A DNA stretch of 64,000 nucleotides. Origin: a plasmid. Of the stretch, positions 39,001 to 45,000 are shown piece by piece. Where the stretch lies: the sequence record NZ_CP118918.1. The stretch is one strand, 5' to 3'. How positions within the stretch are numbered: position 1 is the stretch's first letter; each line of letters begins with the position of its first letter. The position numbers were made by a program.

Positions 39001-42000
39001 GCTCTACACCTGGGTGTGGGCATCGGCTCGGCGAACTCCCACTACAGGTCCGGCAGTGGACGTGCCCCTCGTGCGAGGTGATTCACGATCGAGACCACAA
39101 CGCCGCCAAGGTCATTCTCGCTGCCGGGCGGGCAGAGAGACTAAACGCCTGTGGAGCCCGTGTAAGACCGCAACCCGTTGCGGCAGTGGGCGTTGAAACA
39201 GGAAGCACCCCAACAGCGGCGTAAGCCGGGAATCCCGGAATCCGGGGAGCACGTCAAAAGCTGCGGACCCAGGTTTTTTTCTCGATATTCTTGCTGCGGC
39301 GACCCGAGCACTTCGGGATTATTGAGTCCAAGGTAACCATGCTGGAAGTGCCCCCCAGAGAACTGACGCGGCCCCAGGCCCTGTCTTCCGGCAGGAACTC
39401 CTGGGGTCCACTTCCGATGGCACCGCGATGCATCGGCTTTACCAGCAATTTTAGGTAAGCCGCACGAGCCGTGCAAGCGCAGTGCTACATGTGGCAGCTC
39501 CACATGGGCCTTCCGGGGGCGCGAGATGCAAAGGTGCTGTTCAAGTAGGCGTATGGCTGGTGTCAGCTCTTGGTGTGGTGTTTGAATTTGCACAGGCGCA
39601 CGCTGTCACACAGCGTTGATTACTGATTGTTCACGTGATTAGTCAATGTGTGTAATATGTCTATCAGTGCGTGAGTGGCGTAGCGGCGTTGGCTGGAAGG
39701 GGACCGATGACCAGGCATCTGAGTCAGGATTCGCAGACCGATGAGCTGATGTCGCAGGTGGCGGCGACCGCGATGTCGTCTCGACGGTCGGTGGTCGTAC
39801 GTGTGAATGCGATGGGGTTTGTGCGCTATGTGACGTTGAGCAATGAAGCTCGCCAGTGGGATTCGGTGACTCTGAACAAGCGGTGCCGGGCGGTGGCGGC
39901 GGTGGCTCATGATCGATGGTTGGCCAACCACGGGGTTTCTGATGGGACGTTACCGACGCTGGAAGCGGTTGCCGCTGCCGAGCGTGCATTGAACTTCTAG
40001 TCGCGTAAGGAGCGATGCATTATGTCGTGGGACGTGTTCGGGTTGGCGATTAACCAGGTCGTGGGGGATGCGTTGAAGGCGTTCGCGGGGCCGGGTGCTG
40101 TTCCGTTGAGCACCGGGCCTGGGGGTGTTCCGTTTCCGTTGGAGCCTGCGCCGGCTCCTCCTGGTCCGGTTCCGGGTCCGCCTCCAGCGCCGGAGGGTCC
40201 GCCTACGACGACCACAACGACACCCGGTCCGCCCGGGGCCCCGACTCCACCGACGGGGCCGGCGACGCCGCCCCCGCCTCCTCCAGGTGTTCCTGAGGGT
40301 GGTGACGGTGGGCCCGCGGCTGAGGCTGCGAAGGAGAATGCTCGCAAGATCGGGATGATGCTGGAGGCTCTTCACGATTTGGACTCGGCCGGTATCAGTG
40401 CCGATGAGATCGCTGCGGCCGGGGAGGCCGGTCGTGTGGAGCTGGAGAAGATCAATTCCGATGTGCAGGCGAAGATTGCCGAGCTGAAAGCCAGCGGCGC
40501 TTTGTACACCCCGGAGGGGCAGCAGGCCCTGATGGACTACAGCAAGACGCGGTTGGAAGAAGCACGTGGGGTCATTGAGAAGGCCGCAGCTGAGGCTGAG
40601 GATAAGGCCAAGGACACCGACAAGAACACCGCCGCGTACGAGGGTGTCGGTGGTCAGGGGAACGGTAGTGCTGACGGCGGGGCCGGTGGTGGAGAGGCTG
40701 GTGGCAGCGGGGCCGAGGACAAGTCGGCTGGTGAGCCTGTGGCGGCTGCTGGGCAGCCCGGTCTGGGTATGGGTGGGATGCCCGGCATGGGTATGGGTGG
40801 CATTCCTGGGCTCGGTGGTGGCATTCCGGGCTTCGGAGGCGGGGGTTCTCCGTTCGGTGGTGGAGGCGGCGGGCTACCAGGTGCGGGTTTCGTTGATCCG
40901 TTGGCGTCGTCGTTGGCGGGGCTCGCTGATCCAGAGCGGGCAGGCCTGGGTTTCAACGACGAGCCGGACGATGAGCCGGCCGATAAGGATTCCGAGGGTC
41001 CTGAGTTCGATGACACCGAGCACAAGGACGACGGCGGCTCCGGCGAGGGCACTAACGACGACGAGGACGCAGGCACGCAACCGGCTGGCGCCAACGGTGC
41101 GCCTGGCGGCGAGCCTGGCGTTGTTCCGCCGGTCGTGGAGCCTCCGAAGTCCACGGAGATCACGTTGCCGAGTGGTGAGGTGACCGAGGCGCGGTCGCCT
41201 GTTGGTGCTGAGGCGGTGCGGGCGGCGTTGGCAGGTTCGTCGGTGTCTGAGTCGTATCAGAAGGCAGGTATTACGTTGCCTCCTGCGGGGACCCCGGTGA
41301 CTGAGCCGATTCCGCCGACGAAGTTGCAGGCCGGTGATGTCGGTATGTGGAAGGACCACCAGGTGATGGCCTTGGGCAACGGCAAGGTGCTGGTCTCGGG
41401 TCAGGAACAGCCGTTGGAGAGCGTCAGTTCGGGGCCGGACTTCCTGGGCTGGTTCGACCCCACCGCGACAGGTAAGACCCCGGCAGCGGTGTAGAGCATG
41501 TCTGTGGAGACGTTTGTGCGGTCGGCTGGGGGGGTGATGGGTGGTGTGCGCGACGGATTCGGCGCGTCCGGCGGTTCAGCTTTGTTGCCGCTTCCGGCCA
41601 CCCCGCCACCGGCACCGCCGGCCCAAGCGCCCGGCAGCGGGGGCGCGGCTGAGGGGCAGGAGAACAGCGGGTGGCAGATCAGCAATAAGGTTGCCGCCCT
41701 TGCTGATCAGGACAACACCGCACACTCCGAGCTACAGTCCACCCTGGGATGCTCCGAGGAGCATCAGGGGGAGATGACCGCGATCATCGATCAGGCAGTA
41801 GTCGATGTGCAGTCGATGGGGCTGGCAACCAACACTCCCGAAGGTAAGCGGGCGTTGATCACCGCGATCATGCAACGGCTGGAAGAGACCCGCGGCACCG
41901 CCGATGCCGGCACTGCCCACGCGGGTACTCATGCGGCCTCGACGTCGGCGAATGTCGCAGGCTACAACGATATCGGCGGTGTGCCGCGCGGCCCGTCACC

Positions 42001-45000
42001 GCTGGCCGGATTCGGCGGCGCCATGCCAGGTATGGGCGGCGGAATGCCCGGCGGGATGCCGGGCATGGGTGGTGGCGGGATGCCGGGCATGGGTGGATTG
42101 TCTGCGCTGGGGCAGCCGTTGAGCGCCTTGAGCGGACTGGCCTCCCCGGCCGGACAGACCATCACCAGAGCAGCGGCGTCAGGCCGTGATTCGGGTAGTG
42201 GCTCTGGGCGAAATGTGTCGTCAGCGGGACCTATTTCTGTCAAGGATGTTCGGTATGACCGTGAGAAGTTCGCCGTCGGCCGGGAGGCCTACAAACGCTA
42301 TGTGGCCGAGGCGCTCGACGTCATGGGCATCACTGACCCCCAGGCGCGAGAGAACTGGAGCCGCGGGTTGATGACCGCGGCCGCGCGGGAGTCGAGCTTC
42401 AACCCGCTCGCGGTCAATACCGATAAGAGTGACTACAACGTTCAGACGTCCACAGGATCGGGACCTGATGGTTTCCCGAATAAGGCGTCGCGGGGTGGAT
42501 TACAGACGATTCCGACGACGTTCGCTGCCTACCATCAGCCCGGCACGTCAACCAACCTTTATGACCCGGTAGCCAACATCAGCGCCGCCATGAACTACGT
42601 GATGGATCGCTACGACGTGTCCCGCGATGGCAGCAACGTGACGAAGGTGCCTCAGTTCAACCCTCGTTCGACTGGAGGTGGCTACTGATGTCTGTGGAGA
42701 CGTTTGTGCGGTCGGCTGGGGGGGTGATGGGTGGTGTGCGCGACGGATTCGGAGCCTCGGGGGGCTCGGCGCTGCTGCCGTTACCGGCCACCCCGCCACC
42801 GGCACCGCCGGCCCAAGCGCCCGGCAGCGGGGGCGCGGCTGAGGGGCAGGAGAACAGCGGGTGGCAGATCAGCAATAAGGTTGCCGCCCTTGCTGATCAG
42901 GACAACACCGCACACTCCGAGGTGGAATCGGCAGCGGGATCGTCGGGGCTGCATCAGGGGGAGATGACCGCGATCATCGAGCAGGCAGTGGTCGATGTGC
43001 AGTCGATGGGTTTGGCAACCAACACTCCCGAAGGTAAGCGGGCGTTGATCACCGCGATCATGCAACGGCTGGAAGAGACCCGCGGCACCGCCGAGGCGGG
43101 GACCGCTGATGCGGGCACTCATGCCGCCTCGACGGCGGCCAATGTCGCGGGGTACAACGATATTGGCGGTGTGCCGCGCGGCCCGTCACCATTGGCCGGA
43201 TTCGGCGGCGCCATGCCAGGTATGGGCGGCGGGATGCCGGGCGGAATGCCGGGCATGGGTGGCGGGATGCCGGGCATGGGCGGCCTGTCTGCGCTGGGGC
43301 AGCCGTTGAGCGCCTTGAGCGGACTGGCCTCCCCGGCCGGACAGACCATCACCAAAGCAGCGGCGACCAAGCCTAGTGGCGGTGCTGATCGCGGGCTGGA
43401 TACGAGCGGGCCCGGCCGTGCCAATGAGCGTGGGCTGCAGAAATACACCAAGCTGATGAACCGGGCTATCAGTGCTGCGTTCCCTGAGATCAAGGAAATT
43501 GGTGGGGTACGCCAAGATTCACTGCACTGGCATCCCGACGGGTTGGCCTTGGACATCATGATCCCCAACTGGGATACCCCCGAAGGGCGCCAGCTCGGCA
43601 ATGAGGTCGTCAACTTCCTGGTCCGTAATCGCACCGAGCTGGGATTGGACCACATGATCTGGCGACAGCAGATGATTCAGCCCGATGGAAGCGCATCGAT
43701 GATGGGTGATCGCGGCAGCGCGACGCAGAACCATATGGATCACGTACACGCGGTCTCGATCGGCGGGGGAAGGTAGGGCCAGGTGGCGGGATCGAACGAG
43801 TCCGAGAAGCAGCGGCCGCCGCGGCGGCGCGGCACTGGGCTGACGTATGCCTCGTTGGAGCAGGTCGCCGCATGGCGGTTTCTGTGGCATCGGATGGCGG
43901 TCGCGGTGGCTCGACATTCGGTGCGTCTGGTGCACGATCCGTCGAAGAACTACGGGGCCTCGACCCTGGTGGGTGTGGTGATCGCGGCGCTGGCGCTCGG
44001 GGTGTGTTTTGTGTTGGCGTGGCTGCGGCCCGCAGGCCAGATTGGGGACTCCAAGCTGGTGGCCGACCGCGCCAGTGGAGCGCTCTATGTCGATATCGAC
44101 GGCACGATGCACCCAGTGCACAATTTGGCGTCAGCTCGACTCATCCTGGGGCAAGGTGCTTCCCCCAAACTTGTACCGATGGCACAGATCGAGGACCGTC
44201 CGATGGGTCCGATGGTCGGGATCATCGGTGCCCCCGATGATTTGACGCCACGCACACCCCAGACCACCGGCTGGGGTTTGTGCGACAGGCTGGGCTCTGG
44301 TGGACCGCAGAGTAAGCCCTCGGTCACGGTGCTCGCCGGCGACTTGGAGTTGGGTGATTGGTCACACGAGATGCATTCACCGCAGGCGGTGTTGATGAAC
44401 TATGGCGGCTCGGTGTATCTGGTGACCGATGGCCACCGATCGTTGATCGACCTCGCTGATCGTCCGGTGATGCTGGCACTGGGTATTCAGGCCGGTGGTG
44501 TGCGGCCCGCGCCGATGTCGAAGGCTCTGTTTGAGGCCTTGATTCCTACTGCGCCCTTGCGGGTTCCGGCGGTGCCGAATCCCGGGGGGCCTGTCGGGTA
44601 CGCCACGACGCAGCTGCCGGTCGTGTCGGGGTCGGTGGTGCGCTCGGTGTCCGCTGACGGACAGCAGCAGTTCTTTGTGGCCTTGCCGGCCGGCATGCAG
44701 TTGATTCCCGAAACGGTGGCGTTGATGTTGAGTAATGCCGACCCATCTGGTCAGGGACGGGTGCTTGAAGCGGCGCCTCACGTTGTTGCTGACGCTCCCC
44801 AGGCGGTCGGCTTCGACGTCTCGAAGTATCCCCGGGGTCCCCTGACATTGTTGGACAAGGCTGTGGAGCCTGTCACGTGCGTGGTGTGGAGCAAGGACGC
44901 CAACGAGGCTCAGGCCAGCGTGAGGACGGTCTCGGGGCGTCGGCTACCTATCCCGGTCAGTGAGGAGCCCAAGGTGATGCGGATGGTATCTGGCCAGGCC

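Follow-up and report, generated by a model that had tools for sequence, protein, structure and literature searches.

Predicted peptidoglycan hydrolases with a common head and exchangeable tails lead the ESX operon of a mycobacterial plasmid

The plasmid of sequence record NZ_CP118918.1 carries genes for a mycobacterial ESX type VII secretion system (T7SS), and in a 64,000-nt stretch of it (the window) three genes that we call U, A, and B lie directly upstream of eccB. We find that U, A, and B share one head-linker-tail plan: a helical head is followed by a linker and then by a tail, which in A is a predicted lytic transglycosylase (SLT) domain, in B a predicted zinc endopeptidase (MT3) domain, and in U probably a degenerate NlpC/P60 (C40) domain. 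On balance, we think that U, A, and B form a peptidoglycan-directed set that leads the plasmid ESX (ESX-P-type) operon and opens the cell wall for the conjugation or secretion machinery. Part of this picture is not new. It was already known that hydrolase genes head ESX-P1, the corresponding system of plasmid pRAW, and in 2014 Ummels et al. proposed that these genes upstream of eccB supply the missing VirB1 function and a bridge between type IV secretion system (T4SS) and T7SS (PMC4173767). The suggestion of a VirB1 analog made in the initial annotation of our window, which dealt with A and B, fits the context but repeats that earlier proposal. The two pRAW genes, mmarE11p_00580 and mmarE11p_00590, were described simply as ‘NLP/P60’ (PMC4173767), and a 2026 paper still cites the pair merely as two NLP/P60 hydrolases. 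What is new here is the three-gene head-linker-tail architecture, the relation of the head to DUF4226, the identification of the MT3/VldE and degenerate C40 tails, the swapping of tails as cassettes at a fixed breakpoint, and the evidence for gene conversion restricted to the heads.

The initial annotation described A and B as adjacent, translationally coupled genes that share a nearly identical N-terminal domain of ~220 residues, carry unrelated C-termini, and lie immediately upstream of eccB, and in each of these respects it was right. Both open reading frames (ORFs) are found at the exact coordinates given in Table 1; U and A are separated by 3 nt, the sequence TGATG at the junction of A and B holds the stop codon of A and the start codon of B with one base in common, and 6 nt separate B from eccB. 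The common part (residues 1-222 of A and 1-221 of B) is 95% identical in protein over 221 aligned residues, with a BLASTP E value of 8e-106 for A versus B, and past residue ~222 the two proteins are unrelated. The further claim that the first ~670 bp are almost identical holds for the sharing of the DNA (92.1% identity over 657 nt) and not for its uniformity, since the identity is a mosaic in which diverged patches stand between identical runs of up to 138 nt. One patch of 13 residues (78-90; window 41730-41770 and 42920-42960) escapes homogenization and reads LQSTLGCSEEHQ in A and VESAAGSSGLHQ in B. This patch differs between A and B in the window and in the related loci L001 and L002 (the heads of L012 are 98.6% identical), and it is not fixed by clade, as zero sites separate all of the A genes from all of the B genes; it may mark the boundary of a conversion tract or a paralog-specific contact. 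A module search of the window found no additional copies elsewhere in it.

The likeness of the two heads had been taken as a sign of recent duplication. Under that explanation a tandem duplication was followed by replacement of one C-terminus, the identity of the heads has no functional meaning, and the 92% DNA identity over ~660 nt in the window is as expected. Comparison with other plasmids renders it hardly credible. The gene order U-A-B-eccB is kept on 8 plasmids, and the A and B heads are 95-99% identical within each of the eight, yet the same pair occurs on plasmids between whose clades the heads are only 41-58% identical. By comparison, identity between clades is higher (58-74%) for the SLT tails that these heads carry, and orthologous SLT and MT3 tails are 58-80% identical on plasmids whose heads have 41-58% identity to those of the window. 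Among 7 close plasmids there are 64 concerted sites (at which A equals B in each plasmid and plasmids differ from one another) versus 0 paralog-fixed sites, and a tree of the heads of these seven clusters the paralogs by plasmid. The homogenized tract always ends at the linker/tail junction (residues 205-233), and eight independent duplications with identical breakpoints would be far less parsimonious than conversion. Because the heads are alike within plasmids and diverged between clades, we conclude that A and B are an old pair kept alike by recurrent gene conversion confined to the heads. The pRAW heads are homologous to these, but their mutual identity is just 54%, and homogenization is therefore a property of this plasmid group.

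We judge the 5′ part of A and B to be coding over its full length because substitutions among orthologs in codons 1-92 show a synonymous excess (synonymous:non-synonymous = 16:4, 16:6, and 19:8), because it holds a single open frame (the others contain stops), which is also open in orthologs, and because the GC content at third codon positions is 0.75. The possibility that this region is non-coding or mis-called was considered and is ruled out on the same grounds. The starts called by the Prokaryotic Genome Annotation Pipeline (PGAP) and RefSeq in the two closest relatives lie ~92-97 codons further in, PGAP calls the long form on three other plasmids, and its starts are truncated for U, A, and B in several records, including NZ_CP079867 and CP016641. 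Short-read contigs often end in or near the duplicated head (L009, L010, L013, L015, L018-L020, and L022-L024), and some head-bearing contigs of this kind span merely 842-910 nt. Short-read assemblies are broken by the 660-bp tandem repeat and RefSeq records carry misannotated starts, and the family is therefore under-counted in databases.

The tail of A is confirmed as a family-1-type lytic transglycosylase (SLT) domain that retains its catalytic residues and is predicted to be active, in agreement with the initial annotation. It matches Pfam PF01464 (SLT) over residues 282-374 with an E value of 1.4e-7 (31.5 bits against a cutoff of 21.3); the catalytic Glu-Ser pair, E298-S299 (in the motif ARESSF), directly follows a modeled helix (281-297), and further SLT motifs are found at 333 (GGLQT) and downstream (AYHQPG). 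The SLT homologs of A (n = 40) are mostly annotated as SLT. A phmmer search of full-length A against the PDB gave nothing at E <= 1.

For B, the metallo-hydrolase-like domain suggested by the initial annotation can now be named. Its tail has zero matches in the copy of Pfam that we scanned. A phmmer search of the PDB aligns residues 244-357 with the catalytic domain of VldE (9flh; E = 5.8e-12), and PF26571 is carried by 90 of 90 database homologs of the tail. An AlphaFold2 (AF2) model of the tail (predicted local distance difference test, pLDDT, of 89.8), when compared by Foldseek, as had been advised, gave VldE structures (9fln/9flm) as all of its top five matches, with a probability of 1.0 and template modeling scores (TM) of 0.61-0.81. 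VldE of Streptococcus pneumoniae has been characterized by experiment as a zinc L,D-endopeptidase of the LAS family (clan MD) that cuts the L-Ala-D-iGln bond of cross-linked stem peptides, and its catalytic zinc ligands are H301, D308, and H375, the last of these inside an H373-x-H375 motif (PMC11667670). The zinc-site residues of B, namely H282 (nt 43531-43533), D289, H349, D351, H352, and H354 (nt 43747-43749), correspond to H301, D308, H370, D372, H373, and H375 of VldE and are invariant in 36 homologs. The position of VldE E368 is Gln in B, and the multi-zinc ‘reservoir’ state of B may differ. Taken together, sequence, modeled fold, and ligands identify the tail of B as an MT3/VldE-type LAS zinc L,D-endopeptidase domain of predicted activity, homologous to VldE in sequence, fold, and zinc-site residues. 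The two proteins differ in setting: VldE has a LysM wall-binding module and a housekeeping or stress role, whereas the tail of B sits on a head encoded in an ESX locus. The residues required for catalysis, which had been asked after for both tails, are thus present in A (E298-S299) and in B (H282, D289, H352, and H354).

The tail of B is 50% identical to TM4 gp17, a tape-measure protein (E = 2e-29), and matches 748 actinobacteriophage records, mostly tape-measure proteins; matches to the MT3 domain are found as well on 178 plasmids of actinobacteria, of which many are conjugative, usually within multi-domain M23/transglycosylase proteins. Phage MT3 domains are embedded in the tape measure, whereas that of B is fused to an ESX-locus head. 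That MT3 is found both in phage tape measures and on conjugative plasmids would fit a role in moving DNA-translocating devices through peptidoglycan. Separately, we note that the SLT and MT3 proteins both have a conserved ending, Gly-Gly-Gly-Tyr/Arg/Phe (GGGY, GGGR), despite their unrelated domains (42677-42685 and 43765-43773); in the SLT relatives encoded on chromosomes the ending is QGY or RGY.

The tail of U gave no Pfam match even at E <= 10, and ribosomal L27 matches returned for it in a PDB search are spurious. Aligned by hhalign with C40, it scores a probability of 80% (E = 1.5e-5), against 0.2-0.3% for controls. The segment that bears FDCSG is absent from 17 of 17 U-type sequences, and a His-containing motif (DH.VMALG) is kept. 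Because the Cys-bearing segment is missing, the tail of U is probably a degenerate, non-catalytic NlpC/P60 domain, for which wall binding is a likelier role than cleavage.

In an AF2 model of full-length A, the head consists of a helix (3-20), a Pro-rich loop (21-48), and a helical hairpin (49-112 / 114-160; pLDDT 85-98), with a disordered Gly/Met/Pro linker further on (173-241). Invariant residues T113-P114-E115-G116 form the hairpin turn, and a conserved Tyr156 lies near the hairpin end. The upstream gene U, which the initial annotation overlooked, encodes a homologous module: U matches the helical core of A by BLASTP (E = 2e-8, 31% identity) and is found by a hidden Markov model (HMM) of the head with E = 3e-24. 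Because the core of U is homologous to the head of A and B, the three proteins have a common head-linker-tail plan. The DUF4226 profile (PF10774) also matches U (E = 3.7e-4; 21.2 bits, under the cutoff of 23.5), and the head HMM joins U, A, and B with the DUF4226 protein of locus L025. Other searches were uninformative, as an NCBIfam scan gave zero matches for U, A, and B, a profile search of the head against the PDB gave chance matches alone, and fold searches of the head gave only generic coiled-coil or hairpin likeness, the match to LapD2 being no better than those to unrelated hairpins.

The head is rare and its tails vary. An exhaustive search with the head HMM against 1.84 billion representative proteins found 100 relatives only (a word-index homology search found 5 proteins). 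Their tails are U-type in 16, C40 in 16, SLT in 15, and MT3 in 4, with a few lysozyme-like tails, one M23 tail, and one alpha/beta hydrolase; a domain scan of the tails found no nucleases, deaminases, or ADP-ribosyltransferases. On plasmids of M. intracellulare and M. aubagnense, the third gene encodes the same head with a C40 tail in place of MT3. The proposal of a swappable enzymatic C-terminus, and the advice to look for other tails on the same head, are thus borne out, and the tails have been exchanged like cassettes at a constant breakpoint. Likeness to DUF4226 proteins and to EspA/EspE comes from profile matches among the relatives of the head (DUF4226 in 36 of 73 scanned; weak EspA_EspE matches in 4), A and B themselves being below the DUF4226 threshold.

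The head is also tied to ESX systems, so that the initial annotation was correct to link it with T7SS. In all 7 genome contigs with enough flank, the genes for an EspB-like PPE protein, a ~797-aa protein, U, A, B, eccB, and eccC follow one another in this order, and in every locus with enough flank the head module lies beside ESX genes. The window itself shares 92.6% identity with the plasmids of Mycobacterium sp. SMC-8 and SMC-4 and 87.5% with plasmid djl-10_1, and it is part of a pRAW-like mycobacterial ESX plasmid with a T7SS and T4SS layout. Transfer of pRAW requires both eccC and virB4, and a VirB1 homolog is absent from that plasmid (PMC4173767). The pRAW pair resembles the genes described here in that it immediately precedes eccB on a mycobacterial ESX plasmid that is conjugative, in its shared head (head HMM E ~2-4e-8, colinear over 165 residues), and in its different C-termini, one of which is C40. 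It differs in that its heads, at 54% identity, are not homogenized and in that its tails are C40 and a Tyr/Pro-rich domain, not SLT and MT3.

A similar arrangement is found on chromosomes. Chromosomal ESX-2-type loci contain genes for an NlpC/P60 protein, a U-like DUF4226 protein (E = 7e-34), an EspC-like protein, and a 300-aa SLT protein, followed by eccB, and the N-termini of the C40 and SLT proteins of these loci are 43% identical to one another. Because these loci repeat the hydrolase arrangement upstream of eccB, we conclude that wall hydrolases with a common helical head in this position characterize the ESX-2/ESX-P lineage in general. The order of the U-like DUF4226 gene and the EspC-like gene presumably recalls the espA-espC arrangement of espACD. 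M. tuberculosis Rv3896c, which lies upstream of eccB2, was suspected as a chromosomal counterpart of A, from the ESX-2 gene order and from synteny in L025-L027; we do not claim this, and no M. tuberculosis protein is among the 40 SLT homologs of A.

How might the three proteins reach the wall? No hydrophobic segment of the Sec or Tat type is present in U, A, or B, whose maximum Kyte-Doolittle hydropathy (19 residues) is ~1.0, compared to 2.7 for the transmembrane helix of EccB. Together with the helix-turn-helix hairpin (shown by the model of A) and the position in an ESX locus, this lack of a Sec/Tat signal is a trait resembling those of ESX substrates. In other genomes, SLT domains 50-53% identical to that of A are fused to PF10824, EspC (43-44 bits against a cutoff of 23.5), which is a bona fide T7SS-substrate domain. 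The mechanism that we envisage begins with the head of U, A, and B, which would deliver or dock the enzymes to their cognate ESX machine and would in this act as an export signal or a tether. In A and B, the heads would be homogenized either because both must fit one partner or because they pair together as T7SS substrates do. A would cut glycan strands and B the stem peptide at L-Ala-D-iGlx, giving complementary bond specificities, and the local opening of peptidoglycan would let the ESX-P and T4SS-like conjugation apparatus assemble or pass DNA. U, A, and B would thus be functional analogs of VirB1/PrgK/TraG and of EssH. A more specific version, which we offer tentatively as a possibility short of probable, is that the head is a new ESX export or docking module for wall enzymes that recruits a hydrolase kit to the hybrid T7SS/T4SS machine, with gene conversion fitting a plasmid-specific receptor or dimerization and with the tails (SLT, MT3, C40, M23, and lysozyme-like) acting as cassettes.

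Several observations weigh against a conjugation-linked, ESX-directed set. The head has no WxG motif, the turn reading T-P-E-G, and no YxxxD/E motif, as the residues after Tyr156 are N-D-I-G, G-D-V-A, or Q-G-I-G, none of which places an acidic residue at +4. The DUF4226 profile has no match to A or B at E <= 0.1 in the Pfam scan, and the EspA/EspE matches of the head relatives are below threshold. The closest plasmids are typed as non-mobilizable by MOB-suite, and the hydrolase genes of pRAW were not among the mutants of the 2014 study (PMC4173767). Finally, regulated autolysins likewise have a long coiled coil ahead of their hydrolase, and the head could therefore be regulatory and not a targeting device.

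This last point amounts to a separate explanation, in which the head serves as a coiled coil for regulation or scaffolding, is auto-inhibitory or activated by a partner, as in RipA, PcsB, or EnvC-type systems, and has no role in export, while the enzymes find another way to the wall or become active only once the membrane is breached. The order of long helical hairpin, disordered linker, and hydrolase would suit such a protein, as would the generic nature of the fold matches and the absence of canonical T7SS motifs. We nevertheless consider this explanation improbable, because U, A, and B have no alternative export signal, which leaves their exit from the cytoplasm unexplained, because the module is found beside ESX genes only, and because, in other genomes, a recognized T7SS-substrate domain is joined to SLT domains of the same clade. 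Regulation and targeting by the head are compatible with each other.

The initial annotation likened A and B to polymorphic effectors such as LXG toxins, a comparison that now looks weak. According to this idea, A and B are interbacterial T7SS toxins in which a constant delivery head carries exchangeable wall-degrading tails into competitors or recipients. A constant head with a variable tail that is swapped between plasmids would be expected of such toxins, and T7SSb systems export wall-targeting LXG toxins, TelC being an example (PMC6193138). However, the genes are so tightly spaced (1-nt overlap of A and B, with eccB 6 nt after B) that there is no candidate for an immunity gene, and Pfam and NCBIfam scans found neither LXG nor another toxin-delivery domain. 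U, A, and B differ from the LXG and other polymorphic T7SS toxins of Firmicutes in the absence of an LXG domain, of identified Lap-type partner genes, and of an immunity gene, and in tails that are confined to wall hydrolases. Across the head relatives the tails are nearly all wall hydrolases (plus the one alpha/beta hydrolase), and an SLT member occupies the same position in every plasmid examined, which is the pattern of a fixed set and not of a variable array with orphan modules. We therefore give little credence to a toxin role for A and B.

For relatives, the idea of toxins is kept alive by the EspC-SLT fusions at the chromosomal ESX-1/ESX-2 junction in L025-L027. There (L025 9644-11651, L026/L027 8400-10326), the fusion gene is followed after a 2-nt gap by genes for a 219-aa protein with a signal-peptide-like N-terminus and a 177-aa WXG100-like protein, and the layout of EspC-SLT fusion and 219-aa protein is as would be expected of a T7SS wall-hydrolase effector and its periplasmic immunity protein.

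A closer alternative to a set that serves conjugation is that the hydrolases serve ESX-P itself, being recruited by their N-domain to the T7SS membrane complex, as is EssH, in order to clear peptidoglycan for a secretion conduit through the wall, with conjugation dependent on them only indirectly. EssH of Staphylococcus aureus is a wall hydrolase of a T7SS cluster that needs its non-catalytic N-domain, joins the secretion complex to remodel the wall locally, and co-purifies with the T7SSb complex (PMC13059805). In keeping with this alternative, U, A, and B head the ESX operon and not the T4SS-like genes (the coupling protein is encoded ~18 kb downstream), and the hydrolase/DUF4226 arrangement precedes eccB in chromosomal ESX-2-type loci, in whose examined flanks T4SS genes are not listed. 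Yet EssH has a Sec signal peptide, which U, A, and B are without, and MT3 is otherwise typical of DNA-translocating devices, that is, phage tape measures and conjugative plasmids. EssH differs further in that it has a CHAP domain, is encoded by a single gene, is Sec-exported, and is explicitly no T7SS substrate (PMC13059805). We regard exclusive service to ESX-P as rather unlikely, although it largely overlaps with the wall-opening set that we favor, the difference being which machine benefits.

The wall-opening set also invites comparison with the hydrolases of other conjugation systems. VirB1, PrgK, TraG of pIP501, and Orf14 of Tn916 bear SLT, CHAP, LytM, or muramidase domains, often several, and open the wall locally (PMC12857230). 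Their genes belong to T4SS operons and their products have a signal peptide or a membrane anchor, whereas U, A, and B have a head encoded in a T7SS operon and neither of these features, with a helical hairpin instead. Inactive versions of VirB1-type proteins can act as adhesins (PMC12857230), a possible parallel for U.

Table 1 Features of the window around the hydrolase genes
Feature	Coordinates	Strand	Description
Gene U	40022-41494	+	490 aa; DUF4226-like helical module, long Gly/Met/Pro/acidic linker, probable degenerate NlpC/P60-like tail
DUF4226-like module of U, aa 97-211	40310-40654	+	
NlpC/P60-like domain of U, aa ~376-490	41147-41491	+	Cys-bearing segment missing
Gene A	41498-42688	+	396 aa; N-module (head), linker, SLT domain; based on ORF, Pfam SLT, and AF2 model
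Repeat copy 1, N-module and linker of A, aa 1-222	41498-42163	+	
SLT catalytic domain of A (predicted), aa 245-396	42230-42685	+	PF01464; E298-S299 at nt 42389-42394
Gene B	42688-43776	+	362 aa; same N-module and linker, then predicted MT3/VldE-type LAS zinc L,D-endopeptidase domain
Repeat copy 2, N-module and linker of B, aa 1-221	42688-43350	+	
MT3 catalytic domain of B (predicted), aa 243-357	43414-43758	+	PF26571, ‘ARB-07466-like’
eccB	43783-45321	+	Pfam/NCBIfam EccB, E ~1e-133 to 1e-140
eccCa	ORF from 45204, end 46514	+	FtsK_SpoIIIE; annotation of relatives
eccCb	46511-49522	+	FtsK_SpoIIIE; annotation of relatives
PE, PPE, two WXG100-like genes, espG, ParA-type ATPase, eccD, mycP, eccE, eccA, VirD4/TraG-type gene	49701-63284	+	
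VirD4/TraG-type coupling protein	61866-63284	+	After eccA

In every related locus, the hydrolase genes show synteny with two further genes upstream of U, namely those for the EspB-like PPE-domain protein (581 aa; 32236-33981, +) and for the ~797-aa protein, which has no family match (35482-37875, +), and both proteins may belong to the same functional unit as the hydrolases. Between the gene for the ~797-aa protein and a small gene upstream of U sits a TnpB/IS605 OrfB-type gene (37980-39224, +) with OrfB_IS605, Cas12f1-like TNB, and helix-turn-helix (HTH) domains. The closest plasmid, pSMC-8_2, has no annotated TnpB gene in the equivalent gap, and the gene in the window therefore has the appearance of a recent insertion immediately before the hydrolase operon.

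Other parts of the window hold genes of different kinds, all on the minus strand. An rRNA adenine dimethylase gene of the Erm/KsgA type (27956-28768; RrnaAD E = 8e-40) could encode a macrolide-resistance methyltransferase. A YcaO cyclodehydratase gene (14516-15823) and two neighboring ORFs without family matches (region 12177-15823) may constitute a plasmid-borne biosynthetic cluster for a ribosomally synthesized and post-translationally modified peptide. A giant helicase-like ORF of 2108 aa (18010-24336), in which helicase C-terminal and ResIII-like motifs are confined to the C-terminal half, adjoins HTH and ParA genes.

U, A, and B are obvious candidates for the wall hydrolase that is lacking from the T4SS genes of pRAW-type plasmids. 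They offer testable handles in the form of E298 of A, H282, D289, and H354 of B, a separable head that covaries with the plasmid, and natural swaps of MT3 and C40 tails. Should the head turn out to act as a signal for ESX export or docking, the system would gain considerably in interest. In that event, the head would define a new class of mycobacterial T7SS substrate and give a function to DUF4226, and part of the T7SS requirement for conjugation would be explained. If the head is an ESX export signal, the proteins that carry it would form the first class of peptidoglycan hydrolases exported by ESX and would provide a direct mechanistic link between T7SS and DNA transfer in mycobacteria.

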